Part shown: positions 8,749 to 49,210 of the stretch, piece after piece
Numbering within the stretch: position 1 is the first letter of the stretch
Layout: each line of letters begins with the position of its first letter
Assembly (NCBI GenBank): GCA_009836625.1
Contig: VXVC01000004.1
Location: 449,037-513,036 of the forward strand
DNA: 64,000 nt
Origin: Holophagales bacterium
GTDB lineage: Bacteria > Acidobacteriota > Thermoanaerobaculia > Multivoradales > Multivoraceae
Direction of reading: 5' to 3'
Program-made: the position numbers and the translations under genes
Notes under the pieces: generated by a model
The model's database searches: none
Told to the model about the DNA's origin: nothing
Seen by the model: the letters and a program-made list of their open reading frames with translations, nothing else

Positions 8749-8768
8749 GGAGGAAGATGGCGGCGCTG

Positions 8769-9296: not shown

Positions 9297-9357
9297 GCAG
9301 GGAGACTAGCAGCCTGCCGAGCGGGTAGAATGCCGGTCCGGCCTAAGGCCGCCGGGC

Positions 9358-9444: not shown

Positions 9445-9452
9445 GAGCCAGT

Positions 9453-13575: not shown

Positions 13576-13607
13576 CGGCCGCTGCGCCGATACGGAACCG
13601 GAGTACG

Positions 13608-15146
<1,539 letters not shown>

Positions 15147-15198
15147 CGTTCAGGACCTCCCGGGAACTCCCGGATCCTCTGGCTTCCGCGCAGGGCTG

Positions 15199-25504: not shown

Positions 25505-28500
25505 CTACGTAGCAGCGGCTTCGGCGACGGCCTCAGGGTCGACGTCGCGCTTGTGGAAGTCGAGCAGGAGGTAGAGCGCGGGGATCACGATCAGCGTCAG
25601 CAGCGTCGAGGTCAGCAGCCCGCCGACCACGGTCAGGGCCATCGGGGTCCTCAACTCCGCACCCTCCCCCACGCCCAGCGCCATCGGCAGCAGGCCCAGC
25701 ACGGTGGTCGAAGTCGTCATCAGAATCGGCCGCAGGCGGACCAGACAGGCCTCGCGCAGCGCCTCGACCTTGGCCTTGCCGGCCCGGCGCAGCCGATTCG
25801 TGTAGTCGATCAGGATGATCGCGTTGTTCACCACGATCCCTGCCAGGAGGATGCCGCCGATCAGGACGACGATGCTGACCGGCGTCCGCGTCAGGTAGAG
25901 GATGCCGATCGCGCCGATGATCGAGAACGGCACCGCGAACAGGATGACGAAGGGGTGCAGCAGCGATTCGAACTGCGAGGCCATGACCAGGTAGACCATG
26001 AACACGGCGAGCAGGATCGCCAGCCTCATGCTGTCGAAGGAGCGTTCCATCTCCTGGCGCTGGCCGCCGATCGAGTAGTCGAAGCCAACCGGGAACTGCG
26101 TCGACTCGAGGATGCCCTCGATGTCGTCGGAGACGCTGCCCAGATCCCGGCCGACGATGTTCGCCTCGATCAGCGCCACCCGGCCACCGTCGCTACGGCG
26201 GATCTCGGCGGGCCCCTCCGTCTCGATGACGTCCGCAACCGCCGACAGCGGCAGCGGCGTGGCGCCGCTCTGACGGATGTTCAGGTTGCGCAGATCGCGA
26301 ACCGAGTCGCGGTAGCCCTCGTCGGTCCGCAGCCTGACTTCGATGTTGCGGTCCTCGCGCACGATGTCCGTCGCGATATCGCCCTGCACCTTGGAGCGGA
26401 TGACGGCGCCGAGCTGGGCGACCGTGTAGTTCAACGTCGATAGCCGTTCCCGGTCGAAGATGATCTGCAGCTCCGGGTTGCCGCCTTCCGTTGAGGACTT
26501 CACGTCCACCAGACCTTCGACCCCGCGCATTCGCGACGCAACCTGATCGGCCAGCCTCTCCAGCAACGCCAGGTTGTGGCCGCGGATCTGCACCTCGACC
26601 GGGCTCCGGAAGCTGAAGTAGGTCGGACGGCCGAAGCGGTACTTCAGCGAGTCGTCCGCGACCACGGAGCCAGACACGAATCCGGCACCGGGAGGCACCA
26701 AGGCCGTACCCGCGACCGGAGGCGTCTGACCGGCGAAGGAGGAGTTGTTTTCGTCGATCCAGTTCCGGATCCGGCTCATCACCGCCTCCTCGCGCTCCAC
26801 GTCGACCGGGGGGTTCAACCGCACGTTGACCTGGCCGATGTTCTCGCGTCTTTCTCCCGCGGCGCCCCCCTGTTCGTTCGACGTGCCCACGACCATGTAG
26901 ACCGACTGCACCTCCTCCTCCAGTTGTTCCCGCACGAACCTGGCAACGGCCCCCAGGCGCCGGTCCGTCACCTCCAGGCGGCTGCCCGGCGCCAGCTCGG
27001 CGTCGACATAGAACTCGCCCTGAATGAGTTCCGGAACCAGTTCGCTGCCCAGCGAGCCGATGAGCTGGACACTGCCCGCGAGGAGCACGACGGCCGCCAG
27101 GACGACCAGCGCGGGGTGGCGAAGGGCCCCGCGAAGGACCCGGGCGTACACGGCCGTGATGCCGCGTAGCAATGCGTCGAAGGCCGCCAGCACCGGCCGG
27201 AGCAGGAACGACATGACGGTCGAGACGGCACGGAACACATGTTTGACGACCAGCGCGACGCCCACGCCGATTGCGTCGAAGAAGGCCGAGAGCGCACGGG
27301 TCACAGGGTTGGAACGCCCGACGTGTCGGACCTTCTCGACCGGTTCCCCGGCGGCGAAAAACTTCCGGGAGGCGAGCATCGGGATCACGGTCAGCGCGAC
27401 CCCCAGCGACACCAGCAGGGAGAACGTCACGGTCAGGGCCTGGTCACCGAACATCTGGCCCGCCACGCCCTCGACGAACACGATCGGTACGAACACGCAG
27501 ACGGTCGTGATCGTGCTCGCGATCACCGCCCGGCCGACCTCCGAGGCGCCGGCCCGGGCCGCTTCGACCACGCTCAGCCCCTGGTCGCGGCGGCGCTGGA
27601 TCGCTTCCAGGACGACGATCGAGTTGTCCAGCAGGAGACCGATTCCCAGGGTGATGCCGCCGAGCGACATGATGTTGAGCGACACGCCGGCGACATACAT
27701 CAGGAAGAACGTCGCCACCACCGAGACCGGAATCGAGATCCCGATGATCAGCGTCTTCGGCGCGCTCCGCAGGAACAGGAAGAGAACGACGATCGCGAGC
27801 GAACCGCCGATCAGGGCGGTCTCGATCACAGCCGACACCGAGTCGCGGATGTAACGGGACTGGTCGGTGAGGACGGTCAGTTCGAGCTGAGGATCGATCT
27901 GCCTGATCTCCTCCTCGAGCTCCTCCACCCGCTCGAGCACGGCGGAAGCGACCGTCACCGTGTTCGTGCCGCCCTCCTTGTAGACCGCGATCTCCACGGC
28001 CTCCCGGCCGTCGATCCGGGTGATCACCTCCCGTTCCCTGGCCCCCTGGTAGACCCGGGCAATGTCCTCGAGGCGCACGATCGCACCCTGGGAACGATCG
28101 ATCACGATCTCCCGCATCTCTTCCGGGCGGAGCAACTCGTTGATCGTTCGCACCAGGTAGTCGGTCTGGCCGTCACGCAGCCGACCGCCGGTCAGGTTCA
28201 CGTTCTCCTGCGCGAGGCGGGTCATCACCTGGTTCATCGTCAACCCGAGGCTGCTCAGGCGACGCTCGTCGATCTCGACCTGAATCTCCTCCTCCAGGCC
28301 GCCGCTGACGACGACGGCCGCCACGCCTTCGAGGCGCTCGAGCTTCCGCTTGAGATCCTCCTCGGCCAGCAGGCGCAACGCGATCAGGTCGCTGCCGCCG
28401 CCGGCGAGCCCCATGCGCAGGATCGGATCGAGGGAGGGGTCGTAGCGCAGCAGCACCGGCCGGTCGGCCTGGACCGGCAAGCGCACCTGATCCAGTCGCT

Positions 28501-28828
28501 CGCGCACGTCGAGCGACGCGAAGTCCATGTTCGTGCCCCAGGAGAACTCCAGGGTGACTTCGCTGATGTCCGCCCGGGAACTGGAAACGACCCGGTTGAC
28601 GCCGTTGACCACGCCGACCGCGTCCTCCACCGGCCGGGTGATCAGAGTCTCCATCTCGACCGGCGCGGCGCCCTCGTACCCGGTCTGAACGGTGAGCGAC
28701 GGGTACGTGATGTCCGGCAGCAGATCGACCGCCAGGTCGCGGAAGGCGACGCCGCCGAAGACCACCGCCGCCAGGGCGAAGATGAACACCGTGACCGGTC
28801 GCCGGGTGGCGAAGGAAACAACCCGCAT
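25505..28828 (-). CDS. RND efflux transporter permease (AcrB/CzcA superfamily), second RND of the operon
   Basis: 1107 aa with 12 TM helices. The N-terminus MRVVSFATRRPVTVFIFALAAVVFGGVAF and the LLLDNSIVVLEAI TM4 region are typical of RND permeases. Confidence 0.9.
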   Translation of the reverse strand: MRVVSFATRRPVTVFIFALAAVVFGGVAFRDLAVDLLPDITYPSLTVQTGYEGAAPVEMETLITRPVEDAVGVVNGVNRVVSSSRADISEVTLEFSWGTNMDFASLDVRERLDQVRLPVQADRPVLLRYDPSLDPILRMGLAGGGSDLIALRLLAEEDLKRKLERLEGVAAVVVSGGLEEEIQVEIDERRLSSLGLTMNQVMTRLAQENVNLTGGRLRDGQTDYLVRTINELLRPEEMREIVIDRSQGAIVRLEDIARVYQGAREREVITRIDGREAVEIAVYKEGGTNTVTVASAVLERVEELEEEIRQIDPQLELTVLTDQSRYIRDSVSAVIETALIGGSLAIVVLFLFLRSAPKTLIIGISIPVSVVATFFLMYVAGVSLNIMSLGGITLGIGLLLDNSIVVLEAIQRRRDQGLSVVEAARAGASEVGRAVIASTITTVCVFVPIVFVEGVAGQMFGDQALTVTFSLLVSLGVALTVIPMLASRKFFAAGEPVEKVRHVGRSNPVTRALSAFFDAIGVGVALVVKHVFRAVSTVMSFLLRPVLAAFDALLRGITAVYARVLRGALRHPALVVLAAVVLLAGSVQLIGSLGSELVPELIQGEFYVDAELAPGSRLEVTDRRLGAVARFVREQLEEEVQSVYMVVGTSNEQGGAAGERRENIGQVNVRLNPPVDVEREEAVMSRIRNWIDENNSSFAGQTPPVAGTALVPPGAGFVSGSVVADDSLKYRFGRPTYFSFRSPVEVQIRGHNLALLERLADQVASRMRGVEGLVDVKSSTEGGNPELQIIFDRERLSTLNYTVAQLGAVIRSKVQGDIATDIVREDRNIEVRLRTDEGYRDSVRDLRNLNIRQSGATPLPLSAVADVIETEGPAEIRRSDGGRVALIEANIVGRDLGSVSDDIEGILESTQFPVGFDYSIGGQRQEMERSFDSMRLAILLAVFMVYLVMASQFESLLHPFVILFAVPFSIIGAIGILYLTRTPVSIVVLIGGILLAGIVVNNAIILIDYTNRLRRAGKAKVEALREACLVRLRPILMTTSTTVLGLLPMALGVGEGAELRTPMALTVVGGLLTSTLLTLIVIPALYLLLDFHKRDVDPEAVAEAAAT

Positions 28829-28862
28829 TTCGGATTACCTGGTCAGGAGTCGAGTCCGCCGA

Positions 28863-30404
28863 TCAACCCGGCGGTCCACCCTGTTGCCTGCCCCGCGGTC
28901 CACCGGACGGTCTTCCCGGCGGCCCCTGCCCGCTCCGGATGCGCTCGATCATTTGGTCGATCTGCTCGTCGCTCATGCCCCGCTCCTTCATGCGGGCCCG
29001 CATCATCTCAATCCGCTCCGGGGTCATCTGACTCGGATCGAATCCTCCCGGCGGACCTCCACTGAAGCCTCCGGGACCGCCCGGCGGGCGAGCCTGCGGC
29101 GCAGCCCGCCCGGCCGCTGCCGCCCCGCCGGCGGCCGGCGCCGCTTGACCGGCAGCGAGCTGGGGTGAGCTTCCCGCGTCCGCAGCCGGAACCGACGTGA
29201 ACATCGTGGGCGCCGCGGCCGGTCCCTCCCGCTCATCGACCGAAATCGGCGTCAGATCGGAGAGACCGTCCTGGCCGACGATCACGACGTCCTCACCTTC
29301 GCGGAGGCCGGAAAGCACCTCCAGGCTGTCGCTCTCCTCGTAGCCGAGTTCGAGTTCACGGCGCCGCGCGACCGTGCCGCCCTCGCCGTCATCCACCGCC
29401 ACGTAAACCATGTCGGAGGTGCTCTCCAGGACAAGGGCCTGCTTCGGAACGACGATCGCGTTCTCGTGAACGTCCGTCTCGACAAACACGCTGGCGAACA
29501 TCCCGGGCCGCAGGCGGCCCTGAGCCTGCACCTCGAGGGTCACCTTGACCGTGCCGGTCGCCGGGTCGACGACCGGGCTGATCCGCAGCACCCGGGCGGG
29601 AAAGCGCACTCCGGGATAGGCCTCGACGGTAAGGTGCGCGGTCTGATCCAGCCTGAGCCGCGGCAGGTCCTTCTCGGGGAGCTGAATCGGGCAGAGCAAC
29701 GGGTCGAAGTCGGAGATCCGGAACAACCGCGCGTTGGTCGAGACGTGCTCGGCGTTCTTGATCACCCGCTCGATGATCAGGCCGTCGAAAGGCGCACGGA
29801 TCACCGTGTAATCCAGCAGGATCTCGGTGCCGACGATCTGGGCGGCCGCGGCCTCGAAGTTGGATTTGGCCAGGTCGTAGGCCTCCTGGCTGACCACCTC
29901 CGCCTGGAACGAATCCTGGGCGCGGTTCCAGGCCAGTTCCGCCTCCGCCAGGTTGACCCGGGCAATGCCGAGCTGCGCCTCGATTTCGGCGGCGTCGATG
30001 CGCGCCAGCACCCGACCGGCCCGTACGAAGTCGCCCTCCTCGACGTTCAGTTCGACGATCGGACCGGTGGTCCGGGCCACGATGTCGACTTCGTTCTCGG
30101 CCTCGAGCGAACCGTTCGTCTCCAGGTAGTCCGCGATGTCCCGGCGAATGGCGCTCGTCACCCTGACCGGGATCGCGGTAGTGGGGGCGCCGAAGCCCGG
30201 CATACCCCCCGGAAAACCTCCCGGAGGACCACCGCCGCGCCCTCCGGGCCGGCCGCCGCCTGGACCACCCTGGCCGGCGCGGGGGTTGTCGCCGCCCGCT
30301 TCGGCATTGGACTGCCCGCAGCCCATGCCCGCCGCGGCCACCGCCGCCATCAACAGAAGGGCGCCGGCCGACCGCGCCTTGCCCAAAGGTACCTTGAGTT
30401 TCAT
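28863..30404 (-). CDS. RND efflux periplasmic adaptor (membrane fusion protein, HlyD/AcrA family) with Gly/Pro-rich N- and C-terminal tails
   Basis: Lipobox AAGMGCGQ, an alpha-hairpin/lipoyl region (RIDAAEIEAQLGIARVNLAEAELAWNRAQDSF) and a beta-barrel region (TVIRAPFDGLIIERV). The true ATG at 30404 overlaps the upstream RND stop (ATGA). Confidence 0.85.
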   Translation of the reverse strand: MKLKVPLGKARSAGALLLMAAVAAAGMGCGQSNAEAGGDNPRAGQGGPGGGRPGGRGGGPPGGFPGGMPGFGAPTTAIPVRVTSAIRRDIADYLETNGSLEAENEVDIVARTTGPIVELNVEEGDFVRAGRVLARIDAAEIEAQLGIARVNLAEAELAWNRAQDSFQAEVVSQEAYDLAKSNFEAAAAQIVGTEILLDYTVIRAPFDGLIIERVIKNAEHVSTNARLFRISDFDPLLCPIQLPEKDLPRLRLDQTAHLTVEAYPGVRFPARVLRISPVVDPATGTVKVTLEVQAQGRLRPGMFASVFVETDVHENAIVVPKQALVLESTSDMVYVAVDDGEGGTVARRRELELGYEESDSLEVLSGLREGEDVVIVGQDGLSDLTPISVDEREGPAAAPTMFTSVPAADAGSSPQLAAGQAAPAAGGAAAAGRAAPQARPPGGPGGFSGGPPGGFDPSQMTPERIEMMRARMKERGMSDEQIDQMIERIRSGQGPPGRPSGGPRGRQQGGPPG

Positions 30405-33400
30405 GCCATCTTTCTCCGCGGAACGGTGACTGCCGCCCGCACAACCCGCTGGACGAAGAGCTTCACGTCGTCGACCAGGGAATAGACCGTCGGAATGACA
30501 AGCAGGGTCAGGAAAGTCGAAGTGGTCAGTCCGCCGAGGATCACCAGACCCACCGGCGCCCAGAACGCAGCCCGACCTTCGGGCTGGCCGAACACCTGGG
30601 GCAGGAAGAACGGCGCCACCATCGGCGACAGGCCGAGAATCGTCGTGACGGCCGTCATCAGGATGGGCCGCAGGCGGTTCTTGCCGCCGAGGACGATCGC
30701 CTTGTCGCGGGCAATGCCCTCTCGCCGCAGCCGGTTGATGTGATCGATCAGGACGATCGCGTTGTTCACCACGATCCCGGCCAGAATGAGCAGCCCCATG
30801 TTCGACGAGTCGGACCGCGGCTGGCCGGCGAGGTACATGATCAGGCCGACGCCGATGAAGGCGAAGGGAATCGACAGCATGATCGTGAACGGCTGCAGGA
30901 AGTCCTCGAACAGGGCCGCCATGATCATGTAGATCAACACCACGGCCAGGATCATCGCCAGTACGGCGCGGGACGCGTCCTCCTCGGCCTCCATGAACCG
31001 CCTGCCGAGAGACCATTCGTAGCCCGGCGGCAGCGGTACGTCGGCGAGGGCCATCTGGACCGGCCGCCGGAGCATGAAGCCCGGCGTGCCGCCAGCGGCC
31101 GTCACGTCGATCTCCACCTTGGAGCGGCGGTTCTCGCGCTCGACCTCGGACGGGCCGCTCTGCACGCGGAAGGAGGCCAGGCTCGAGATCGGCAAGGTCA
31201 CACCGGCGCCCTCGCCGTTCGGGTCCGCCACCTGAACCGGCATCTTCTTCAACTGATCGAGTGTCTCCCGGTCCTCCTCCCGGTACTGCATGACCATGCC
31301 GATCTCACGCTCCGCGGTCTTGAAGTACGCCAGCGAACGACTCGACAGAGCGCCATTGACCGTCATCGCCACCGCCTGGCTCGACAGACCGCCCTGGAGG
31401 GCGCGCTCACGATTCACCGACACCCGGATCTCGTCGTCGCCGCTCTCGAACGAGTTGTCGATGTCGCCCACGATGGGAATCTGACGCAACCGTTCGGTGA
31501 TCCGCGGCACGAGGAGCTCGAGAGTGCCGACATCGTCGCCGATCAGCTCCACGTCCATCCCGGATCTCCCGGAACCCGGAGGGCCGAACTCGGTGCGGGC
31601 AAGCTTGAACAGCACGCCGACCCGCCGCGGCATCGCCTCCCGGATGAGTTCCGTGACCTCGTCGGTGGACAGCTCCGAGACCTCCTCCGGCTTGAGATAG
31701 ACCTCGAAGCGGTTGCCGCCGCCGTATCCCCGGCTGCGGCCACCGCCCCGCCGCACCTGGTGGGCGATGTCGGCGATCTCCCACTCGTCGCGCCTGGAAT
31801 CGAGCATCGCGTAGACCTCGTCGTAGAGAGCCAGGCGCTCCTCCATTCCCATCTGCCGCGGCGTTTCGACGAACACGGTCAACGCCCTGCCCTGGGATGG
31901 CTGGTTGAAGCTCCGTTCGATGCTGTTGTAGAGCACCCAGGAACCGTAGAGCAGCGCTCCGATGACCATCGTGAAGACGAAGCGGTGGCGGAGCGTGAAC
32001 CCCAAGGTTCGCCCGTAGAGCTCGTTCATTCGGTCGAGCAGCTTGAAGCGGCGCTTGCTCTCCGACCTCAGCAGGATCGCCGCGATCATCGGCACCACGG
32101 TCAGGGAGATGACCAGGGAGCCGAGCATGACCACGCAGACCGTTGTGCCGATGTCGCCCATGAAGCGCGAGAAGCTGCCCGGTCCGCCGCCGCCGCTGCC
32201 GAAGAAGATGAGCGGAACGAACACGCACATCGTGGTCATCGTCGAGCAGATGATGGGCATCGCCACGTCGCTGGCGCCGCCCAGGGCGGCGTACTTGGCG
32301 TTCGCGCCGAGTTCCTGGCGGTGCCGGAAGATCGACTCGATCACCACGATCGAATTGTCGAGCAGCATTCCGATCGCCAGCATCAATCCCATCAGGCTCA
32401 TCACGTTCAGCGTGATTTCGGTGACGCCTGCCTGACGACCGAGGTACATCATCACGAAGGTCATGACCAGCGACAGCGGTACCGCCAGCGCCACCAGCAG
32501 CGTGGTGCGGAACTTGCGCAGGAACAGGAACATGAAGACGATCGCCAGGCCGCCTCCGATCAGGCCGCTGCGACCCAGTTCGGTCAGCCCCTGGCGCACG
32601 TCGACCGAGGTGTCGTGGAAGTGGCGGAACTCGAGGCCTTCACCTTCGGGCGTCTGCTGAATCGCCGCCAGCTCGGTCTTGACCCGGTTGACGACCTCCA
32701 GCAGGTTGGCGTCCGAGGCCTTGTTCACGCTCAGGTTGATCGCTTCCGTGCCGTTCAGGAAGTTGTACTCGTACTTGTCCGGATAGCCGAACTTGACGTC
32801 GGCGACATCGCCCACGCGCAAGCCGTCGCCTCGGATCGGCAGATCCCGGATCTCGTCCGGTGCCCGAAACTCGCCCACGGTGCGAACCAGCAGACGGCGG
32901 CTGCCCTCGCGCAGGTAACCGCCCGAGACGTTCACATGGTTGTCCTGCAGGGTCTGGCGCAACTCCCGCACATCCACGCCGTGGGCCGCCATGCGGTCGG
33001 GCAGCAGCTCGATCCGCAGCTCCCGGCTCAGCATGCCCCAGACTTCCGCCTGCGCCACGCCCTCCAGCCGCTCGATCCGCGGCAGGAGCACGTCCTCGAC
33101 GAAGTCGTTCAGCTCGTCCTGGTCCCACGGCGCGCTGAGACTGCTGCGGAGGACCGGAATGTCCGTGCTCTCGAAACGACGGACGTAGATCTGTTCCACG
33201 TCGCTCGGCAGTTCGTTGCGCACCCGGTCGATCCGGTCCCGCACGTCGACGGCCGCCAGCTCCATGTCCGTCCCGTCCTGGAACTCGATGTCCACCGAGG
33301 CGGAGCTGCCGCTCGCCCGCGAGCGGAGTAGCCGAACGCCGTTGATCGTTCCCAGGCTGTCCTCCAGCGGCCAGATGATCGACCGCGCGATCTCCTCCGG

Positions 33401-33676
33401 CGACGAGGACTGATAGGGGACCCGCACCGAGATGTTGGACGACTGGAACAGGGGCAGGAACTCCAGCGGCAGGCGCGTCAGCGACAGCCAGCCGAGCACC
33501 AGGACGCCGAGCGTTGCCATGAACATGGTCACCCGCCGCTCGACGGCGAAGCGGATCAGCGGATGGACGGGAACGTGTGCCGCCGCCTCCTGGAGCGCCG
33601 CCTCCTGCTCCTCGGGCCCCGCGCGCAGGCCGGCTTCCTGCGATTCCATCCCGACCTCCTTTTCGTCGGCGCTCAC
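30401..33676 (-). CDS. RND efflux transporter permease (AcrB/CzcA superfamily), first RND of the operon
   Basis: 1091 aa and a paralogue of the 25505-28828 gene (GMLLDNSIVVIESI; conserved periplasmic loops). It has an N-terminal extension of about 40 aa. Its start overlaps the stop of the LTXXQ gene. Confidence 0.9.
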   Translation of the reverse strand: MSADEKEVGMESQEAGLRAGPEEQEAALQEAAAHVPVHPLIRFAVERRVTMFMATLGVLVLGWLSLTRLPLEFLPLFQSSNISVRVPYQSSSPEEIARSIIWPLEDSLGTINGVRLLRSRASGSSASVDIEFQDGTDMELAAVDVRDRIDRVRNELPSDVEQIYVRRFESTDIPVLRSSLSAPWDQDELNDFVEDVLLPRIERLEGVAQAEVWGMLSRELRIELLPDRMAAHGVDVRELRQTLQDNHVNVSGGYLREGSRRLLVRTVGEFRAPDEIRDLPIRGDGLRVGDVADVKFGYPDKYEYNFLNGTEAINLSVNKASDANLLEVVNRVKTELAAIQQTPEGEGLEFRHFHDTSVDVRQGLTELGRSGLIGGGLAIVFMFLFLRKFRTTLLVALAVPLSLVMTFVMMYLGRQAGVTEITLNVMSLMGLMLAIGMLLDNSIVVIESIFRHRQELGANAKYAALGGASDVAMPIICSTMTTMCVFVPLIFFGSGGGGPGSFSRFMGDIGTTVCVVMLGSLVISLTVVPMIAAILLRSESKRRFKLLDRMNELYGRTLGFTLRHRFVFTMVIGALLYGSWVLYNSIERSFNQPSQGRALTVFVETPRQMGMEERLALYDEVYAMLDSRRDEWEIADIAHQVRRGGGRSRGYGGGNRFEVYLKPEEVSELSTDEVTELIREAMPRRVGVLFKLARTEFGPPGSGRSGMDVELIGDDVGTLELLVPRITERLRQIPIVGDIDNSFESGDDEIRVSVNRERALQGGLSSQAVAMTVNGALSSRSLAYFKTAEREIGMVMQYREEDRETLDQLKKMPVQVADPNGEGAGVTLPISSLASFRVQSGPSEVERENRRSKVEIDVTAAGGTPGFMLRRPVQMALADVPLPPGYEWSLGRRFMEAEEDASRAVLAMILAVVLIYMIMAALFEDFLQPFTIMLSIPFAFIGVGLIMYLAGQPRSDSSNMGLLILAGIVVNNAIVLIDHINRLRREGIARDKAIVLGGKNRLRPILMTAVTTILGLSPMVAPFFLPQVFGQPEGRAAFWAPVGLVILGGLTTSTFLTLLVIPTVYSLVDDVKLFVQRVVRAAVTVPRRKMA

Positions 33677-34263
33677 CGGCAGTCACCCGGCGAGTCGCCG
33701 TCACCGTGGCGCCCGCGACCACGGCCATCGTGGTCTCGGTCTCCGTGCCGCCGACTCCGGTCCCACAGGTCACGACGCATCTCGTCGAAGCGAACCGCCT
33801 GATCCGGGCGCAGCAACTCCCCCACCTGGCGGTGGAACTCTCTCTGCAGGGCGCAGAACTCGTCGCGGGCCCCGGTCCAGTAGAGGCGGCCTCGCACCAT
33901 CGCCTCGCCGACGATCGGCTCGAGCGCCGCGATCTGCTCCGGATCGAGTTCGAGGTGTCGCGCCATGCGCCGAGTCACCTTCGCCCTGTACTCGGCGTCC
34001 TCCTCCGAACGGGCCGCATCGGCAGGCGCTTCCGGCGTCGAACTCGCCGTCGCGTCACCCGAACCTTCCTCCGAGTCGCGGCAGTCGAAGTGGAACGTCG
34101 ACGGCGCGGGAGGGTGTGCTTCCGTTCGCGTTTCCTGCTTCTTGTCGGCGGCACGACGCTCCGGCAGCAGCCGGTCCGCCACCAGGCCGGCCGACAGGCC
34201 CACGACCAGCACGGAGCCCAGCGCGACACCCATCCACAGCTTCGTGGGACCGTTCGACATCAC
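33673..34263 (-). CDS. Periplasmic LTXXQ-motif (Spy/CpxP/ZraP-like) stress protein with a His/Asp/Arg-rich C-terminal tail
   Basis: A signal anchor, an LELDPEQIAALEPIV (LTXXQ-like) motif, predicted helical repeats, and a tail RSRRHGDRDHDGRGRGRHGDGDSPGDC. It is ATGA-coupled on both sides. Confidence 0.55.
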   Translation of the reverse strand: MMSNGPTKLWMGVALGSVLVVGLSAGLVADRLLPERRAADKKQETRTEAHPPAPSTFHFDCRDSEEGSGDATASSTPEAPADAARSEEDAEYRAKVTRRMARHLELDPEQIAALEPIVGEAMVRGRLYWTGARDEFCALQREFHRQVGELLRPDQAVRFDEMRRDLWDRSRRHGDRDHDGRGRGRHGDGDSPGDCR

Positions 34264-34718
34264 CGCGTCCCCAGCGGCTCGTAGAGAACGGCCAGCAGTT
34301 CGTAGCCGGCGTCATCGTCGCTCATCGCCACGGTCGCCACGCCGGCCTCTTCCAGCCCGGCGACGAACGGATCCGGATACTCCGCGGTCACCGGTGCTTC
34401 CGGAATGGTCTCCGAAGCCATGGGCTGCGTGCCGGAACCGAGCGTCGTGACCAGCGCGGCCCCGGCCGCGAGCGCGCCGACGGGCGACAGGCGCAGGGCC
34501 AGCAGCCGCCACGGCGCGGCCTGGTCCCGGCGCTCCAGCCAGGCGTCGCGACGGGCTCCGAAGCCCGCCAGGAACGCCGGCGCAGCGGGCGGCGCCGCGC
34601 ACTCCTCACGCATCCCCTCGAACAGCGCGTCGAGCTTCCCGACCTCCTCCGGTCGGTCCGACCCGATGCGCCGAGTGTCGGTGCGCCGGCCTTCCGGCCG
34701 GCTCTTCTCCTCCCTCAT
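34260..34718 (-). CDS. Putative anti-sigma factor (single-pass membrane protein)
   Basis: 152 aa with a central TM helix (WRLLALRLSPVGALAAGAALVTTLG). Its start ATG overlaps the ECF sigma stop (ATGA). There is no zinc-finger motif, so assignment is by position only. Confidence 0.5.
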   Translation of the reverse strand: MREEKSRPEGRRTDTRRIGSDRPEEVGKLDALFEGMREECAAPPAAPAFLAGFGARRDAWLERRDQAAPWRLLALRLSPVGALAAGAALVTTLGSGTQPMASETIPEAPVTAEYPDPFVAGLEEAGVATVAMSDDDAGYELLAVLYEPLGTR

Positions 34719-35392
34719 CACGTACCTCCCCCTCCCCTGGAGTCCGGCTCGCCGAGCCGGCGCCGGAGCTTCTGCCGGCCCCGATGCACCCGGATCTGCG
34801 CCGTGCCGATCGGACAGCCCAGACACTCCGCGATCTCAACGTACTTCATTCCCACCACATCCTTCAGCACGACCGCCGTTCGCTGGCTCTTCGGCAAACG
34901 CGCCAGCTCGCGCACGAGAGCGCGCCGCAGCAGCCGCGACTCCACGGCCGACTCCGCTCCGGCCGCCGGCAGTTCGGCGAGCGCTTCATCCCCGACGTTC
35001 CGGTCCAGCCGCTTGCCCCAGCGCGCCGACCGGCGCAGCTCGTCGTGGGCCCGGTTGATCGCGATCCGGTAGAGCCAGCTCTTGAACGCGGCCGACTCTC
35101 CCAGGTCCCCGAGCTTCCGGTAGGCCAGCAGGAAGGCGTCCTGGGCCACGTCCTCGGCGACCTCCCAGTTGAGTACGTAGCCGTAGACCAGCTTGCGGAG
35201 CGGTATCTCGTACCGAAGCACAAGGGCCTCGAACGCCGTGGCGTCTCCCGCCGACGCCCGTCGAACGAGTTCGACATCCTCGGAAGGGCCGGTCGACCCG
35301 AGGATCGATTCCCGGTCGGACGCTTTCTGAGCTGGCAAGTCATCATCCTCTCGGTGCAGGGACGACCCGCCGGCGACCCTTGTTTCGCTCAT
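34718..35392 (-). CDS. ECF-family RNA polymerase sigma factor (sigma-70 regions 2 and 4)
   Basis: Region 2 (FEALVLRYEIPLRKLVYGYVLNWEVAEDVAQDAFLLAYRKL) and region 4 (RTAVVLKDVVGMKYVEIAECLGCPIGTAQIRVHRGRQKLR). Start is the ATG at 35392; an alternative GTG at 35416 overlaps the cca stop. Confidence 0.85.
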   Translation of the reverse strand: MSETRVAGGSSLHREDDDLPAQKASDRESILGSTGPSEDVELVRRASAGDATAFEALVLRYEIPLRKLVYGYVLNWEVAEDVAQDAFLLAYRKLGDLGESAAFKSWLYRIAINRAHDELRRSARWGKRLDRNVGDEALAELPAAGAESAVESRLLRRALVRELARLPKSQRTAVVLKDVVGMKYVEIAECLGCPIGTAQIRVHRGRQKLRRRLGEPDSRGGGGT

Positions 35393-35412
35393 CCGGCCGC
35401 TCGGGGAACCGC

Positions 35413-36846
35413 TCACGATTCCGTACCGCCGGAGTTGCCAGGTCCTAGCCCGGCGACAGCCCGGCGCCGGAGCAGCGAATCGAGGAAGCGCAGGCCCGCG
35501 GTCCTCCCCTCGAAAGCGCCGTCCAACTGTGCCTGGTAGCAGCGATCGACGAGAACGCCAATCTCGGGACCGGGCGAAAGACCACGGGCGATCAGGTCGC
35601 GTCCGAGCACGAGCCGGGTCGGCGCCTGGTCCCTGATCCTCAGAGCTTCCGCCCGCGAAAGCAGCCAGTCGCAGTCCTCGCAGTCCGCTGGCGGCAGCGG
35701 CGGACGGCCCCTGGCGTCGGCGCGCGCGACCCGCACCAGACGGTCGATCCGTTTCACCCGGTGGGCCAACCGGCGAACGGCGGCGTCCCCGGCGCCCCCC
35801 TGATAGAGCTGCCGCGGCTTGAGGTGGTCGACGACGAGCCGCACCACGTCGTCAACCAGCCCGCGCTGGTTCGTGAGCCGGGCCATGAAGCTCCGGGTGG
35901 GCCCCTCGCCGGCCGCCTCATGGCCGCGGGAACGCAGTCGGCCGTCGACGAATCTGGTCGTCGCGGGCTTGCCCAGGTCGTGGCAGACGCAGGCCAGTCC
36001 GACCACCAGGTCCTCCTCCTCGTCGCCCAGGCGCTCGGTCGCGAAGGCGTCCAGAACGTGCCCCGTATGGCTCCAGACGTCGCCTTCGGGATGCCATTCC
36101 GGATCCTGTTCGCAGCCGACCGTGGCCTGGAGTTCGGGGTAGCCCTGAAGCCACCCGCTCGCCTCCAGGAACCGCAGGCCGCGGCCGATCTCGATTCCCT
36201 GAAGGAGGAGTTTCCGCCACTCGTCGAAGACCCGCTCGACGCTCAGTTCCCGCCAGCCGATCCCGGAACAGAGACGGACGGTGTCCGGGTCCGGTTCGAG
36301 CCCCAGCCGGGCTGTGAGCTGCATCCCGCGCAACACGCGGAGCGGATCCTCCGGGAACCGGTGCGAGGCGTGACGCAACCGCCCGCGCTTGAGGTCCGCC
36401 CTGCCTCCGAGAGGATCCTCGACCCGGCCGGCCAGCGGTTCGTACGAGATCGCGTTGATCGTGAAGTCTCGGCGCTCAGCGGCCTGTCCGACGGTCATGT
36501 CCGGGTCGGCGTCAACGAGGAAGTCGCTGTGACCGGCTCCGACGCTGACCTCACGACGCGGCAGGGCAACGTCGACGGGAACGCCGCGCAGCTTGACGAC
36601 CGAGAAGGCGCGTCCGACCCGGTCGACCCGCAGGCCCAGGTCCTCCAGCATTCGGTCGAGGTCCTTCGGCTCGATCCGGAAGGCCTCGAGGTCGAACTCG
36701 GTGAACGGCCGATCGAGCATCGCGTCCCGCACCGAGCCCCCCACCACGCGGACACAACCGCCCCGCTCCGCCGCGGCCCGGCAGATCTGCAGCACCTTCG
36801 GCCAGGCCGGATGGCGCGCGAGGCGAGAGCCAGGATCCGCAACCAC
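35413..36846 (-). CDS. cca: CCA tRNA nucleotidyltransferase with C-terminal HD domain
   Basis: Pol-beta nucleotidyltransferase head (VVGGSVRDAMLDRP...DFTINAI) and an HD motif (GHVLDAF...CVCHDLGKP). Confidence 0.8.
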   Translation of the reverse strand: MVADPGSRLARHPAWPKVLQICRAAAERGGCVRVVGGSVRDAMLDRPFTEFDLEAFRIEPKDLDRMLEDLGLRVDRVGRAFSVVKLRGVPVDVALPRREVSVGAGHSDFLVDADPDMTVGQAAERRDFTINAISYEPLAGRVEDPLGGRADLKRGRLRHASHRFPEDPLRVLRGMQLTARLGLEPDPDTVRLCSGIGWRELSVERVFDEWRKLLLQGIEIGRGLRFLEASGWLQGYPELQATVGCEQDPEWHPEGDVWSHTGHVLDAFATERLGDEEEDLVVGLACVCHDLGKPATTRFVDGRLRSRGHEAAGEGPTRSFMARLTNQRGLVDDVVRLVVDHLKPRQLYQGGAGDAAVRRLAHRVKRIDRLVRVARADARGRPPLPPADCEDCDWLLSRAEALRIRDQAPTRLVLGRDLIARGLSPGPEIGVLVDRCYQAQLDGAFEGRTAGLRFLDSLLRRRAVAGLGPGNSGGTES

Positions 36847-36916
36847 GGCTCTGTTATTCTAAAGAGCCTGCGCCTGGAGATTCCGCCATGAGCCCGTGCG
36901 GCCGAAGGAGGAGACG

Positions 36917-37993
36917 ATGAAGCCGACTTGCGAACCGTGGACCCTGGAGCAGCCGGTGCGGCCCGGACTCTTCGCTGCCGCCCTCTGCATCTTCCTTTCT
37001 CTCGCGCTCGTCGCGCCGGCAGCGGCGCAACTCCCGGGCACCGTATGGGGACAGATTTTCGACGCCACGACCGGAGACACCCTCGAGGGCGTGGAGATCA
37101 TCTTCACGAACCCCGAAGCGCCCACGTTCCGGGAGGTGCACTACTCCGGGAGGAACGGACGGTTCCGGATCATGATCAAGAACGTCGTCACGCACGAGCG
37201 CGGCGGCTTCACCGTCGAGTTGAAGAAGGAAGGCTACGTGACCCGGCGGGTGGGCAACGTCCGCATCCCCGCCCGCAACGAGACGAGGCTCAGCCAGCTC
37301 CCGGGAGGCGGCGACTGGAACCTGACCTCCGAGGAGGAGGCGCTGAAGCAGCAGGCGGCGCAGTTCGAGGCCGCCGGCATCCCGCAGCCGTCCGAGCAGG
37401 TGGACCTGGAAGCGGAGGCCCGCGGCAGCGCGATCAAGCTCTACAACCAGGGCAGCAACGCGTTGAATTCGGGCGACTACGAGACGGCCGAGTTCATGTT
37501 CCAGGAAGCGCTGTCGAAGAAGGCGGACCTGACCTCGGCGATGGGCGGACTTGCCCGCATCTACTCCTTCCGGGGCGACCATGTCCGGGCGGTGGAGTAC
37601 GCCGAACAGGTGGCGGCCGAGGGCGAAGACCTGGAGAACATGAACCAGATCCTCTACGCCGGCTACAACGCGCTGGGTATGGACGACAAGGCCGAGGCCG
37701 CCCTGGCCTCCCTCCAGAGCACGGATCCCGAGAAAGCCGCCAAGAACCTGTACAACGAGGCAGCGGACCTGTACAACGCCGGCAGCATCGCCGAGGCCCT
37801 GACGAAACTGGAGCAGGTCGTGGGGTTCAATCCGAATCATCCCGAGGCGCTCAACATGCTTGGCCTCTGTTACGCCGCGCAGTCGGAGAACGACAAGGCC
37901 CTCGAGACCTTCAGGAAGTTCCTGGAGGTGGCCCCCGACCATCCGGAAGCGGCCACTGCCCAGGCGATGATCGAGTACTTCGAGTCCCTGTAG
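36917..37993 (+). CDS. Secreted TPR-repeat protein with N-terminal carboxypeptidase-regulatory-like beta domain
   Basis: AGGAGGAG ribosome-binding site directly upstream, a signal peptide, an N-terminal beta-sandwich-like region (GQIFDATTGDTLEGVEIIF), then at least 4 TPRs (LYNQGSNALNSGDYETAEFMFQEAL, etc.). Confidence 0.7.
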   Translation: MKPTCEPWTLEQPVRPGLFAAALCIFLSLALVAPAAAQLPGTVWGQIFDATTGDTLEGVEIIFTNPEAPTFREVHYSGRNGRFRIMIKNVVTHERGGFTVELKKEGYVTRRVGNVRIPARNETRLSQLPGGGDWNLTSEEEALKQQAAQFEAAGIPQPSEQVDLEAEARGSAIKLYNQGSNALNSGDYETAEFMFQEALSKKADLTSAMGGLARIYSFRGDHVRAVEYAEQVAAEGEDLENMNQILYAGYNALGMDDKAEAALASLQSTDPEKAAKNLYNEAADLYNAGSIAEALTKLEQVVGFNPNHPEALNMLGLCYAAQSENDKALETFRKFLEVAPDHPEAATAQAMIEYFESL

Positions 37994-37997
37994 CAGC

Positions 37998-40502
37998 TTG
38001 CCCGTTCGACCGCTCGCGGTAGCCCTGGCCGCGGGCCTGCTCCTGCCCGTCCTTCCCCTCCGGGCCCAGGACGACGTCACTCTCGAACGGATCATGGCCC
38101 ATCCGGACTGGCTGGGTCGCCAGCCGGAGCGGCCGTACTGGAGCAGCGACGGCGACAGCGTCTACTTCCAGCGCAAGCGGGAGGGCGAGGAGACCCGCGA
38201 TCTCTACCGTATCGACCTCGAAGGGCCGGAAACGGTCCGGGTCTCCGACCGCGACCGCGCCGGCGCGGAAGCCGCGGGCGGCAACTGGGACCGCGAACGG
38301 CGCCGCCGGGTCTTCGTTAAGGCGGGCGACGTCTTCATCCGCGACCTGGACCGTGACGACAGTCTGATCCAGATCACCCGGACCGCCACAACGGAAGCCA
38401 CGCCCTTCTTCACCGCCGGCGGCGATGTCGCCTTCCGCCGGGCCGGCGTGTGGTTCGTGCGGGAGCGGGAGACCGGCCTGCTCAGACAGCCTTTCGACGT
38501 CCGGGCGGAAGACGAGCCCGAACAGGCGCGCTCCGAGCAGGACCTCAAGGCCGGCTACCTGGAGCGCCAGCAGCCGCGACTGCTCGAGATCGTCCGGCAG
38601 CGGCGCCAGCGCGAGGAACGAAGCCTGGAGGTTTCCAGGGAACGCCAGGCAGGCGACCCCAGCCGGTCGGCCCTGCCCCACTACCTGGGCAGGGAAGTGG
38701 AAGTGGCCGGCTCAGCCCTGTCGCCGGCCCTTGACCGCCTGGTCCTGCGCACCCGTCCGAAGGAGCGCGACGAGGGGCTCCGCGACAGGATGCCGAACTA
38801 CGTCACCGCCACCGGCATGGTCGAGGTCGAAGAGGTCCGCATGAAGGTCGGCACGGCGGAAACGGCCGGCGAAGCGCTGCTCCTGCTGCGCGCCGGAGAC
38901 GCGGAGCCAGTGACGCTCGACCTCTCCGTGCTGCCGGGCATCACGGACGATCCGCTGGCCGACCTGCGTGAGGTGGCACGCCAACGGAAGAAGGACCGGG
39001 AAGCCGCGGCGAAGGAGACCGGCGGCGGCGAGGACGCGGCCGATACCGAAGCGAAGTCGATCGAGCAGAAGGACGAGGACGCCGGTGAGGAGGAAGCCAA
39101 CGACAAGGAGCCCGGGCCCCGGCCGGTTCGCTTCGGCCCGGTGTCTTTCAACCGGGACGGCTCGCGTGCCGTCGTGCAGGTCTACTCGGCCGACAACAAG
39201 GACCGCTGGATCGCCGGAATCGACCTCGAAGCCGGCGAACTGGGTCCCCTGCACCGGATGTCCGACCCGGCCTGGATCAACTACGCCTTTCGCGATCTGG
39301 GCTGGCTGCCGGACGACCGCACGATCTTCTTCCTGTCCGAGGAAACCGGCTACTCGCATCTCCACGTGATGGACACGGCGACCGGCGAACGACTTCAGGT
39401 CACGGAGGGCGACTTCGTCGTCCGTTCGCCACAGGTTTCGGCCGACGGCGCCTTCCTCTACTTCGAGGCGAACAGGAACCACTCCGGGGTCTTCGACGTC
39501 TTCCGCGCGCCGGTCTCGGAAGCAGGGACCGGCGTCGTCGAACAGGTCACCTCCCTCGGCGGCCTCAACTCCTACCGACTCTCGCCGAACGACGGTCACC
39601 TCCTGATCGTCCATTCCAGCGCCAATCGGCCGCCGGAACTCTGGCTCCAGGACGCATCGCCGGGCGCCGAGGCCATCCGGTTGACTGAGACGACGTCCTC
39701 GAACTTCCTCGCTGTCGACTGGGTCGCGCCCCGCTTCGTCGAGGTGCCCTCATCGCACGTGGAGCGACCGATCCACGCCCGCCTCTACCTGCCGCCCGGC
39801 CCCGCGGAGACTCCGCGGCCGGCGGTCGTCTTCGTCCATGGCGCCGGCTACCTCCAGAACGCCCACCAGGGCTGGTCCTCCTATTTCCGGGAGTTCATGT
39901 TCCATACCCTGCTCGCCCGCCGCGGCTACGTGGTGCTCGACATGGACTTCCGCGCCTCCGCCGGCTACGGCCGGGACTGGCGCACCGCGATCTACCGGCA
40001 GATGGGCACGCCCGAAGTCGAAGACCTGGCCGACGGCATCGACTACCTGGTCGCCGAGCAGGGCGTCGACCGGGAACGGATCGGCGTCTACGGTGGGTCC
40101 TACGGAGGCTTCGTGACGTTCATGGCGATGTTCCGCCACCCCGAACTGTTCGCAGCGGGAGCGGCCCTGCGCCCGGTGACCGACTGGGCCCACTACAACC
40201 ACGGCTACACGTCGAACATCCTGAACACGCCGGAACTCGACCCGGAGGCCTACGAACGCAGCTCGCCGATCGAGTTCGCCGAGGGTCTGCAGAAACCGCT
40301 CCTGATCTGCACGGGCATGCTGGACGACAACGTCCTGTTCCAGGACTCCGTTCGTCTCGTCCAGCGCCTCATCGAGCTGGGCAAGGAAGACTGGGAGCTA
40401 GCGGTCTATCCGGCCGAAGCCCACGGCTTCGTCGAGCCGTCAAGCTGGCTCGACGAGTACCGCCGCATCCTGAAGCTCTTCGAGACCCACCTCAAACCCT
40501 AG
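37998..40502 (+). CDS. S9-family serine peptidase (prolyl oligopeptidase/acylaminoacyl-peptidase type) with N-terminal beta-propeller
   Basis: Signal peptide; catalytic Ser motif GVYGGSYGGFVTF with C-terminal Asp/His region (CTGMLDDNVLFQD, AEAHGF); TTG start. Confidence 0.85.
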   Translation: MPVRPLAVALAAGLLLPVLPLRAQDDVTLERIMAHPDWLGRQPERPYWSSDGDSVYFQRKREGEETRDLYRIDLEGPETVRVSDRDRAGAEAAGGNWDRERRRRVFVKAGDVFIRDLDRDDSLIQITRTATTEATPFFTAGGDVAFRRAGVWFVRERETGLLRQPFDVRAEDEPEQARSEQDLKAGYLERQQPRLLEIVRQRRQREERSLEVSRERQAGDPSRSALPHYLGREVEVAGSALSPALDRLVLRTRPKERDEGLRDRMPNYVTATGMVEVEEVRMKVGTAETAGEALLLLRAGDAEPVTLDLSVLPGITDDPLADLREVARQRKKDREAAAKETGGGEDAADTEAKSIEQKDEDAGEEEANDKEPGPRPVRFGPVSFNRDGSRAVVQVYSADNKDRWIAGIDLEAGELGPLHRMSDPAWINYAFRDLGWLPDDRTIFFLSEETGYSHLHVMDTATGERLQVTEGDFVVRSPQVSADGAFLYFEANRNHSGVFDVFRAPVSEAGTGVVEQVTSLGGLNSYRLSPNDGHLLIVHSSANRPPELWLQDASPGAEAIRLTETTSSNFLAVDWVAPRFVEVPSSHVERPIHARLYLPPGPAETPRPAVVFVHGAGYLQNAHQGWSSYFREFMFHTLLARRGYVVLDMDFRASAGYGRDWRTAIYRQMGTPEVEDLADGIDYLVAEQGVDRERIGVYGGSYGGFVTFMAMFRHPELFAAGAALRPVTDWAHYNHGYTSNILNTPELDPEAYERSSPIEFAEGLQKPLLICTGMLDDNVLFQDSVRLVQRLIELGKEDWELAVYPAEAHGFVEPSSWLDEYRRILKLFETHLKP

Positions 40503-40539
40503 GTCCCGCGCTGGGTGCGCCGGCGGCCCCGCCGGCCGA

Positions 40540-43500: not shown

Positions 43501-43965
43501 CAGGGCCTCCGCAAGCGAGCGGTTGACCGCCAGCGAAGCGAAGAGCTGGCCATCGCGCCGGGACAGGTCGAGCTGCTCCGCGGCGCTCGGGAAGAAGGAG
43601 CCGAACCCGTCGTCGATCCCCTGGACGTTCACCCGGGCGGCGCGCCGGCCACTCTCCGGTTCGACGACGCTGCCCTGCATCAGGATCGCGGCCGACACCG
43701 GACCGTAACGGGCAGTGAAGGCGGCGTCGCCGGCCAGTTCGTTCCGCAGTTGCTCGCGGAAAAAGCCGGCGCCGAGAAGCGCGTGATCGATGCCGCCCAG
43801 GCGGTCGAGTGTGAGTTGGCGCAGACTTCCCCGCACCGAGTCTCCGACCATCAGGGCGCCGGTCAGTACCGAGGCCGCGACCGCCGCGGTCAGCACCACC
43901 GCGACGTTCGAGCGCCAGTAGTGACGGAGACTCGGCAAGGGGCCGGAAGGGCGAGCAACAACCAC
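40540..43965 (-). CDS. ABC transporter permease with duplicated FtsX domains (MacB-like, 1141 aa)
   Basis: Two 4-TM FtsX modules, each preceded by a large periplasmic domain. It lies 4 nt downstream of the MacB/LolD-type ATPase. Confidence 0.8.
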   Translation of the reverse strand: MVVARPSGPLPSLRHYWRSNVAVVLTAAVAASVLTGALMVGDSVRGSLRQLTLDRLGGIDHALLGAGFFREQLRNELAGDAAFTARYGPVSAAILMQGSVVEPESGRRAARVNVQGIDDGFGSFFPSAAEQLDLSRRDGQLFASLAVNRSLAEALAVETGDSVVLYLERPSEAPRASLMGEKDPEDQLESMRLSVVSVLEDEGPGRFQLSPHQSQPLVGYVRLRDLQRELDRRGLANALLVGELGEAGEPEAAALDLERRIRSHAQAADFSLAFAEAEDHLRITSSQIVFGEELAGAVEVLARDQGVEAIGVSTYLANRTGAENGAAAPYSTIAALDTGRAGELGVLRLADGRPAPALAPGEVLVNTFLAEDLGVGEGDRLTIDYFVIGDREQLVERPVQATVAGVVEMTGWAADRTLTPDFPGVADADNMSDWDPTFPVDLSRIRDQDEAYWDEHRATPKLFVSLEYGAELWSSRFGLLTSFRLLPADGDSPGQLRAALEGEAPERVELHAAGLAVEAVKAAGLRGATGATDFGGLFIGFSLFLIVSAALLVGLFFRLGTESRANEMGLLLALGHGIKRVRRRFLVEGALLGGAGVLLGLGGAVLYAGAMMAALRTLWRSAVGSSHLYLHVEPLTLALGGAGSLLVVFFAIRGAVGRLAAVSPIRLLRGETTERPAAVSAPGRRARWTRGIAGGLAVALLGGSAAAPASSAAYLFFSGGACLLIAGLAGFTLWLRRRPEAPLRSWSWRAGSSMAAANASLNPGRSLLCAALVASASFVIVAVGAYGLRFGEETRSLDSGAGGFDLVAESDVSVLADMTSVEGRYELGFGEEASDLVGRAEIVAFRTVPGDDISCLNLFQPERPRLLGAPPEFIERGGFRFQSLISEAGEAPWVLLEQDLGPGIVPAIGDFNSVMWILHSGLGQGIEVETERGETIELRLVGLLRKSVFQSELVISEANLARHFPSRTGASYFLLRTEPDEQDRTMQELERTLAGFGFDAVPTAQRLQAFQAVENTYLGTFQTLGGLGLLLGTLGLSVVLLRNLLERRGELATMQAIGFWRRALAWLVVAENSLLLAAGVTVGAASALVAVSPHLLGGHALVPWLSLGLTLLLVLAAGTLASLAAVRRVTREDLLPALRGS

Positions 43966-43969
43966 CGCG

Positions 43970-49053: not shown

Positions 49054-49210
49054 CGGGGGGAGTCTACGGCAGGGAATCGACGCCGACCACCGGCAACCTG
49101 AGAGGCCTCGGGTGCGTAGTGCATATGTTGTAGCCTGCGCGCCTTACTTGCTCCTGTCGGGCTCGAGTCCTTCGAGTCTCGCTATCCGCAGCCTCGAGAG
49201 GTATTTGCCG

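Follow-up and report, generated by a model that had tools for sequence, protein, structure and literature searches.

An ECF sigma factor cassette joined to a paired-permease RND pump in Acidobacteriota

The gene row

The stretch considered here, called the window in the following, comprises 64,000 nucleotides from a Holophagales bacterium (GenBank assembly GCA_009836625.1, contig VXVC01000004.1, positions 449,037 to 513,036) and has a G+C content of about 68%. On its reverse strand seven co-directional open reading frames (ORFs) with a high third-position GC occupy positions 25505-36846. Six of them form a unit, namely the genes for a sigma factor of the extracytoplasmic function (ECF) type, a putative anti-sigma factor, a small membrane-anchored protein that we call X, a first permease of the resistance-nodulation-division (RND) family (RND-a), a membrane fusion protein (MFP) that acts as adaptor, and a second permease (RND-b). 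We consider it fairly probable that these six genes make up a positively autoregulated envelope-efflux operon with X as the sensing partner.

The first gene of the unit (34718-35338, reverse strand as for all genes of the row) encodes a protein of 206 amino acids counted from a TTG at 35338. In Pfam it matches Sigma70_r2 (9.5e-14) and Sigma70_r4_2 (1.9e-14) with no match to region 3 or region 1, and it scores 82 bits against TIGR02937, for which the cutoff is 43. By this domain content it belongs to the ECF sigma factors, that is, group 4 of the sigma-70 family. The second gene (34260-34718) encodes a single-pass membrane protein of 152 amino acids, regarded as a putative anti-sigma factor for its homology to zf-HC2 anti-sigma factors. 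X follows (33673-34263, 196 amino acids); family profiles place it in the LTXXQ/Metal_resist superfamily. The remaining three genes encode the pump: RND-a (30401-33649; ACR_tran, 4e-205) with 1082 amino acids from an ATG at 33649 or 1091 from a GTG at 33676, the adaptor lipoprotein (28863-30404; TIGR01730 and HlyD_D23, the latter at 1e-28) with 513, and RND-b (25505-28828; ACR_tran, 1e-243) with 1107. There the operon ends, abutting a convergent gene on the forward strand (23159-25459). The seventh ORF (35413-36846) is merely the upstream neighbour. It encodes a nucleotidyltransferase of the CCA-adding enzyme/poly(A) polymerase family (cca-like; PolyA_pol and HD in Pfam), whose score lies under the NCBIfam equivalog cutoffs. 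A preliminary description had taken all seven as one tightly coupled module; the seven co-directional ORFs and their Pfam assignments stand, while cca falls outside the unit. The range given for that module, 28863-35416, left out both RND-b and cca although its text counted them.

How closely the genes are packed can be read directly from the letters. The stop of the sigma gene and the start of the anti-sigma gene share TGATG (within GTGATGA) at 34716-34721, the anti-sigma stop and the X start share GTGATG at 34258-34263, and RND-a and the adaptor gene share ATGA at 30401-30404, so that the overlaps proposed earlier for these three junctions are confirmed. Adaptor and RND-b are 34 nt apart. 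The junction of X and RND-a can be read in two ways: the GTGA overlap described for 33673-33676 is present and would be used with the GTG at 33676, whereas the ATG at 33649 leaves a spacing of 23 nt. This ATG, which has AAGGAGG in front of it, is the likelier start. Inside the row neither a second ECF motif nor a sigma-70-like promoter nor a convincing terminator was found, the consensus scans giving nothing above chance; a motif ahead of RND-a at 33676, where a search for one had been proposed, is not seen. Since all junctions are overlaps or gaps of at most 34 nt, and no such promoter or terminator interrupts them, the six genes probably form one transcription unit.

Conservation of the row and its promoter

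Sixty-six close relatives of X were found; an exact look-up in the assembly collection gave no record of X itself. Those that carry names all come from metagenome-assembled genomes of Acidobacteriota, and a genome scan places the close relatives in the Thermoanaerobaculia, in 'Candidatus Multivorans' and the Multivoraceae. Several isolate names of these assemblies resemble what we take to be sponge-metagenome bins. All loci of this clade are collinear over the entire 20-kb neighbourhood. Synteny among them is therefore uninformative on functional linkage, and for this reason relatives of RND-a outside the clade were sampled.

This sample holds seven RND-a homologues of 55-65% identity, those of loci L050-L056. 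The named ones are all from Acidobacteriota, mostly Thermoanaerobaculia. RND-a, MFP and RND-b stand in that order in all seven contexts. In four of them (L050, L051, L052 and L055) the genes for a sigma factor, an anti-sigma factor and a small X-like protein lie directly upstream, within unrelated flanks; in the other three (L053, L054 and L056) all three regulatory genes are missing together. The linkage that the preliminary description had proposed, of an RND/MFP/RND pump to genes for an ECF sigma factor, its membrane-bound anti-sigma factor and a protein of the LTXXQ superfamily, thus recurs beyond the clade, and the combination is widespread in the Thermoanaerobaculia. One of these loci, L051, carries a recent extra copy of RND-a that is 76% identical, giving the order RND-a', RND-a, MFP, RND-b (5864-16930). 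An HMA domain on one RND-a homologue, P0302, was dropped as a faint match.

The regulatory triple is also found without an RND pump. In two distant genomes (L045 and L046) a sigma factor, a single-pass protein and an X-like protein adjoin MacB-type transporters. The middle protein of L046 has a clear HxxxCxxC motif, and a gene with the OEP domain lies adjacent. In L045, a distant Acidobacteriota locus, a MacB/FtsX-type permease comes after the cassette. Just upstream of its sigma gene (8486-8884) this locus encodes another small protein that is LTXXQ-like and has a tail rich in His (GEHGEHGQHGQHEGGGHQ). As X is gone where sigma and anti-sigma factor are gone, and is paired with them beside transporters that are not RND pumps, we assign it to the signalling half. 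It travels with these two and not with the pump, and by analogy it is probably a signalling partner like CnrX.

A role of X as an accessory of the pump, either as a CusF-like periplasmic substrate carrier or as an assembly factor of RND-a outside signalling, would account for the closeness of the two genes, between which there is either an overlap or a spacing of 23 nt. It would also fit a peculiarity of the adaptor. This protein scores 230 bits against TIGR01730 (cutoff 95) and classifies as an RND membrane fusion protein; it has a conserved Cys after the signal sequence, as in a lipoprotein, and a Gly/Pro-rich N-terminal linker. Its C-terminal approximately 120 residues (28863-29230) consist of a Gly/Pro/Ala-rich linker and then a conserved helical motif of about 40 residues (FDPSQMTPERIEMMRARMKERGMSDEQIDQMIERIRSG) with two LTXXQ-like repeats. 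The extension gives a weak Metal_resist match (E = 0.016), and its LTXXQ-like motifs hint at an interaction mode shared with X. The motif is conserved in L050-L053, and so is kept even where X is missing (L053). The complete RND-a/MFP/RND-b pump occurs without X in L053, L054 and L056, and X-like proteins occur with sigma and anti-sigma factor beside the non-RND transporters of L045 and L046. An accessory role is hence very improbable in our estimation, and a signalling role for X remains the reading that we follow.

A gene for an outer-membrane factor (OMF) was looked for at several scales. Two OMF queries run by tblastn had no match in the window, nor in some 50 related loci (each with 10 kb on either side), Pfam detected no OEP domain in ten candidate ORFs, and no OEP gene lies within 8-10 kb in the seven out-of-clade loci. 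The absence of an OMF from the locus, which had been noted earlier for the window, is therefore seen in its relatives too. Two points had been fixed beforehand as bearing on the preliminary description, and both came out in its favour: orthologous loci keep the genes for the anti-sigma factor and X, and in no relative is an OMF gene adjacent.

What separates cca from the unit became visible when the region around its stop was aligned from about 40 related loci. A block, CGAAACAAGG...GTCGTC, is constant across the alignment, while the DNA around it varies and has indels that are not multiples of three. The block contains a candidate promoter of typical ECF type, GAAAC-N17-CGTC (35386-35361, reverse strand), with the -35 element at 35386-35382 and the -10 element at 35364-35361. 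All clade loci that include this region (about 40) have it in the same position upstream of the sigma gene, and so have L050, L051, L052 and L055 with their unrelated flanks; upstream of the pump in the cassette-less loci L053, L054 and L056 it was not found. A conserved ECF promoter ahead of the sigma gene, proposed earlier as something to look for, can accordingly be pointed to. It emerged only from the multi-locus alignment, a simple regular-expression search for ECF promoters having returned nothing. In the 64-kb window the pattern has just two matches, where 1.07 are expected by chance on both strands. The second match (GAAAY-N17-CGTC, 50770-50795, reverse strand) runs antisense within an ORF at 49112-51598 and is consistent with chance. 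Presumably, the motif ahead of the sigma gene is the promoter read by the operon's own sigma factor.

Placed as it is after the end of cca and ahead of the sigma gene, the conserved promoter also indicates where the sigma gene is likely to start. The TTG at 35338 is the first in-frame start codon after the promoter and stands 7 nt past a GAGAGGA, and both are conserved in relatives. Read in this manner, the sigma gene begins at TTG 35338, after 74 non-coding nt that follow cca and include the promoter. The GTGA coupling of cca and sigma gene that had been proposed at 35413-35416 does not hold: the promoter occupies 35361-35386, the two alternative starts (GTG 35416 and ATG 35392) are unconserved in close relatives, and frame-breaking indels fall in this region. 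Moreover, cca is missing from the contexts of L052 and L055 and is divergent in that of L054. In view of these losses and of the intervening promoter, we rejected the idea that cca belongs functionally to the unit.

The regulatory half and protein X

The anti-sigma candidate shows no Pfam match, in particular none to zf-HC2, and no HxxxCxxC motif. It aligns nevertheless with the zf-HC2 anti-sigma factors of L050 (7966-8496), L052 (8018-8479) and L055 (7084-7548) through a juxtamembrane and transmembrane block, DPxFxxRFRxRR...WRxLAxRLxP. The three orthologues keep the zinc finger, whereas in the window's clade and in L051 the N-terminal HxxxCxxC part is deleted while the juxtamembrane block is invariant. 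Because the window protein is homologous to zf-HC2 anti-sigma factors that occupy the +1 position in these three loci, the alignment indicates that the zinc finger is ancestral and was lost in the window's clade.

X begins with a transmembrane helix that is strongly conserved, with M11, A14, S17, L19, G22, A25, G26, L27 and R31 invariant. Two L-x-x-x-Q motifs follow (LELDPEQ and LLRPDQ), the glutamines of which (Q110 and Q155) are invariant in the family alignment, as are the cysteines C61 and C137. The tail is rich in His, Asp and Arg, has three His and seven Asp in its last 30 residues, and ends in Cys. The His/Asp-rich tail that was described for this protein therefore exists, yet it is confined to the clade; together with H58 and H144 it is not conserved in the out-of-clade orthologues, unlike the Cys pair. 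A model of the X core by AlphaFold2 consists of three long helices (predicted local distance difference test, pLDDT, 87). Among the genes of the row X evolves fastest, with a median identity of 63% in the clade compared with 74% for the anti-sigma candidate, 94% for RND-a and 89% for RND-b. In one locus (L012) RND-a is 100% identical to the window copy and X only 78%.

To which family does X belong? A profile of its family, run against 1.8 billion representatives, finds 496 proteins, and the best 62 remote ones include 41 that match PF07813 (LTXXQ) and 20 that match PF13801 (Metal_resist). Against the sequences of the PDB this X-family profile has no match; only a broader, joint profile reached Spy of E. 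coli (3oeo, E = 1e-7), with both motifs aligned. It is through this transitive profile link only that the placement of X in the LTXXQ/Metal_resist superfamily is supported. Within the 62 remote homologues both cysteines are present in 22 and both absent in 29, and only 11 are mixed. Such covariation fits a periplasmic disulfide, and thus a periplasmic location of X, which we infer from it.

The profile link to Spy suggests a different role, in which X would be an effector: a Spy-like, ATP-independent periplasmic chaperone that is induced along with the pump and protects proteins of the envelope, the anti-sigma factor sensing alone. Spy structures are the only solved relatives that the profile reached, LTXXQ is the commonest Pfam family among the remote relatives of X, and in E. 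coli BaeSR induces spy together with mdtABC. X has in common with Spy, CpxP and ZraP the LxxxQ motifs on long helices and the link to envelope-stress signalling, and the Spy profile match spans both motifs. It differs from these E. coli proteins in its transmembrane anchor, its shorter core, its Cys pair and its place in an ECF operon rather than in a two-component regulon. Three points argue against a chaperone. The highly conserved transmembrane helix of X suggests a specific membrane partner, unlike the soluble Spy; the core has no counterpart of the 28-residue segment between the motifs of Spy; and X stands beside sigma and anti-sigma factor whichever transporter adjoins. We therefore judge an effector role unlikely and return to X as a sensing partner, for which two described systems offer a frame.

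The first is ECF281, a computationally defined group (Casas-Pastor et al. 2021) derived from the old CnrH-like group ECF20, in which the sigma gene (position 0) is followed by a zf-HC2 anti-sigma factor at +1 and a PF13801 protein at +2 (PMC7826278). The layout of our operon resembles this context. At +1, the orthologues in L050, L052 and L055 have zf-HC2 and the window protein has not; at +2, X has no direct PF13801 match, whereas the proteins of L055 and L046 match at 5e-4 and 2e-4, under the gathering score. The out-of-clade loci L050, L052 and L055 hence fit ECF281, while the window's clade deviates from it in the missing zinc finger and in an X that stays under the Pfam thresholds. The main text of the article that defines the group names no RND pump (the string 'RND' occurs 0 times; PMC7826278). 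Judged by gene context, the regulatory half would be a member or a close relative of ECF281.

The second is CnrYXH-CnrCBAT of Cupriavidus metallidurans CH34 (ECF291; PMC6851896, PMC7826278). There the membrane-anchored sensor CnrX modulates CnrY, so that CnrH is released and cnrYXH and cnrCBAT are transcribed (PMC6851896). In both systems the ECF sigma factor is accompanied by a single-pass anti-sigma factor whose cytoplasmic domain is short, and by a periplasmic protein that is anchored in the membrane and belongs to the LTXXQ/Metal_resist superfamily (CnrX and, by its profile, X). The Cnr system autoregulates and controls the RND pump next to it, and our operon presumably does likewise. The differences are as clear. 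The gene order is Y-X-H in Cnr and sigma, anti-sigma, X in the window; CnrY belongs to the class II anti-sigma factors, the window protein deriving from the zf-HC2 type instead; and the metal ligands of CnrX are not conserved in X. The Cnr pump, finally, has a heavy-metal efflux (HME) RND permease, an OMF of its own (CnrC) and its own promoter, in contrast to the one promoter, the two non-HME permeases and the missing OMF gene of the window. Despite these differences the regulatory half may well work like CnrYXH.

In such a scheme the single-pass anti-sigma factor would in the resting state retain the sigma factor at the inner membrane, and X would form with it a periplasmic sensing pair in the manner of CnrX and CnrY. 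Once freed by a signal in the periplasm, which might be a metal, a toxic substance or damage to the envelope, the sigma factor would read GAAAC-N17-CGTC upstream of its own gene and bring about one transcript for all six genes, from its own to that of RND-b. The two paralogous permeases together with the adaptor lipoprotein would constitute an inner-membrane and periplasmic efflux assembly working with an outer-membrane channel encoded elsewhere. The reading of the promoter by the sigma factor, the signalling of X through the anti-sigma factor and the unlinked outer-membrane factor are the steps that we infer.

Several results weigh against this scheme. X has no direct match in Pfam or NCBIfam, so that its earlier naming as an LTXXQ protein stands by way of the family profile, which does reach LTXXQ/Metal_resist and Spy. 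None of three fold searches with X matched Spy, CpxP or CnrX, and the X family shows no conserved equivalents of the CnrX ligands His42, His46, Glu63, His119 and Met123. In our own reading of the sequence, the positive-inside rule leaves the topology of X unsettled. The anti-sigma candidate has lost its zinc finger, so that its binding of the sigma factor is presumed, and transcripts of cca may read through into the operon.

The paired permeases and known pumps

RND-a and RND-b are 30% (BLASTP) to 34% (MAFFT) identical, about 33%, and MdtB is the best solved relative of both. In a neighbour-joining tree with orthologues from five lineages, the RND-a clade and the RND-b clade join each other before either joins MdtB/MdtC or AcrB. 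Because the two pair first, the tree indicates that their duplication is old, stable and independent of the one that gave MdtB and MdtC. Both permeases are strongly constrained in the clade, as their median identities given above demonstrate.

The proton relay of both is unusual. HAE-1 (hydrophobe/amphiphile efflux) pumps of the AcrB/MexB type have D407-D408-K940-R971-T978 (AcrB numbering), of which MdtB and MdtC also have D-D-K. In both permeases of the window the D-D-K part is replaced by D-N-N, with D407/N408/N940/R971/T978 found in all 13 sampled members of both groups. Relay residues that differ between the two permeases are thereby ruled out, and as both share D-N-N-R-T neither paralogue looks degenerate. 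Matches to the HAE-1 models NF033617, NF000282 and TIGR00915 fall under the cutoffs. For the HME class the result is also negative: transmembrane segment 4 (TM4) reads GxLLDNSIVV without an acidic HME pattern, TIGR00914 stays under its cutoff, and the Met triad and relay of CusA are found in neither permease; apart from M486 and M391, which coincide in RND-a, no methionine position of CusA is conserved. The comparison of TM4 with HME and HAE signatures, which had been suggested earlier, shows neither an HME motif nor the D-D-K relay of the HAE-1 type.

These residues bear on the idea that the operon is a heavy-metal determinant of the HME type like cnr, ncc or czc, with X sensing metal through His, Asp and Cys. 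Some relatives of X do match PF13801, 'heavy-metal resistance', and X of the clade offers H58, C61, C137, H144, the His/Asp tail and a C-terminal Cys. ECF281 and ECF290 have also been proposed to respond to heavy-metal stress (PMC7826278), a link that was drawn from the Pfam name and not from experiment. Outside the clade, though, the His residues and the tail of X are unconserved and only the Cys pair is kept, and permeases that have neither the CusA methionines nor the acidic TM4, and whose best solved match is the multidrug-type MdtB, lend no support. The metal reading thus rests mainly on the name of a Pfam family and on clade-specific residues of X. We hold it to be distinctly unlikely, and the metal-efflux function that the preliminary description had offered as one option is not borne out by the permeases.

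An envelope-efflux pump with two permeases, as we prefer to see it, has known counterparts. MdtABC of E. coli, MuxABC-OpmB of P. aeruginosa and SmeIJK of S. maltophilia are heterotrimer pumps with two permeases (PMC10872679, PMC7015380), and a survey from 2024 put all known RND pumps with two permeases into a single proteobacterial lineage of tandem genes. It found tandem repeats of permease genes only in HAE-1 clade B and, as heterotrimers that are known, names MdtBC, MuxBC and SmeJK (PMC10872679). Two paralogous permeases, one adaptor and one operon are common to these pumps and to that of the window, and MdtABC, too, is without a linked OMF gene. MdtABC, MuxABC and SmeIJK differ, however, in being tandem MFP-RND-RND systems with permeases about 50% identical that go back to a single proteobacterial duplication within HAE-1 clade B. 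The window pump has the order RND-MFP-RND, permeases about 33% identical from a separate duplication, D-N-N in place of D-D-K, and a host among the Acidobacteriota. Its pump half might therefore work like the MdtABC type while standing outside that lineage. MdtABC and SmeIJK are tied to envelope-stress regulons, namely BaeSR/Cpx and sigmaE.

By analogy with MdtBC, a mixed trimer of RND-a and RND-b is plausible, the alternative being two homotrimers that share the adaptor. That the two paralogues are always found together speaks slightly for their acting jointly. A bolder proposal goes further: RND-a and RND-b would form an obligate heterotrimer that arose independently of MdtBC, MuxBC and SmeJK, with a D-N/N relay, an adaptor with an LTXXQ-like tail and a CnrX-like ECF cassette as its switch, in many Thermoanaerobaculia. 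We offer this tentatively, thinking it somewhat less probable than its opposite. If true, the RND pump with two permeases would have been invented a second time, by convergence, and this one could serve as a model of how such pumps are connected to envelope sensing outside the Proteobacteria.

How much of this is new? The operon had been presented as a type not yet described. For its regulatory half this cannot be maintained, since its context resembles that of ECF281, and in CnrYXH-CnrCBA, a system known from experiments, an RND pump is likewise paired with a periplasmic sensor and an ECF sigma factor (PMC6851896). Only the pump half looks new, and the parts are all of known kinds. In the literature searched, no experimental study of an RND-MFP-RND pump combined with an ECF cassette was found, and a search for tandem genes would miss this layout. 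Current understanding is not overturned. RND-a/MFP/RND-b nonetheless presents an independent case in which to ask why a pump has two permeases and how transport is energised without D-D-K. The regulatory half, in turn, provides a cassette of the ECF281 type with a defined promoter and target operon, and this makes the cassette easily testable. Its host lineage comprises abundant sponge symbionts, for which the efflux of host or microbial metabolites is plausible.

The surroundings of the operon are collinear core genome and not an island. All loci of the clade preserve the order of the flanking genes (36896-46427 and 23159-25459), which encode a TPR/CarboxypepD_reg protein, an S9 peptidase, an FtsX-type permease of 1141 amino acids together with an ABC ATPase, and a cytochrome c protein with DUF7133. 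Rfam assigns to the window only two tRNA genes, at 6671-6744 (reverse strand) and 9358-9441 (forward strand), both far from the operon.

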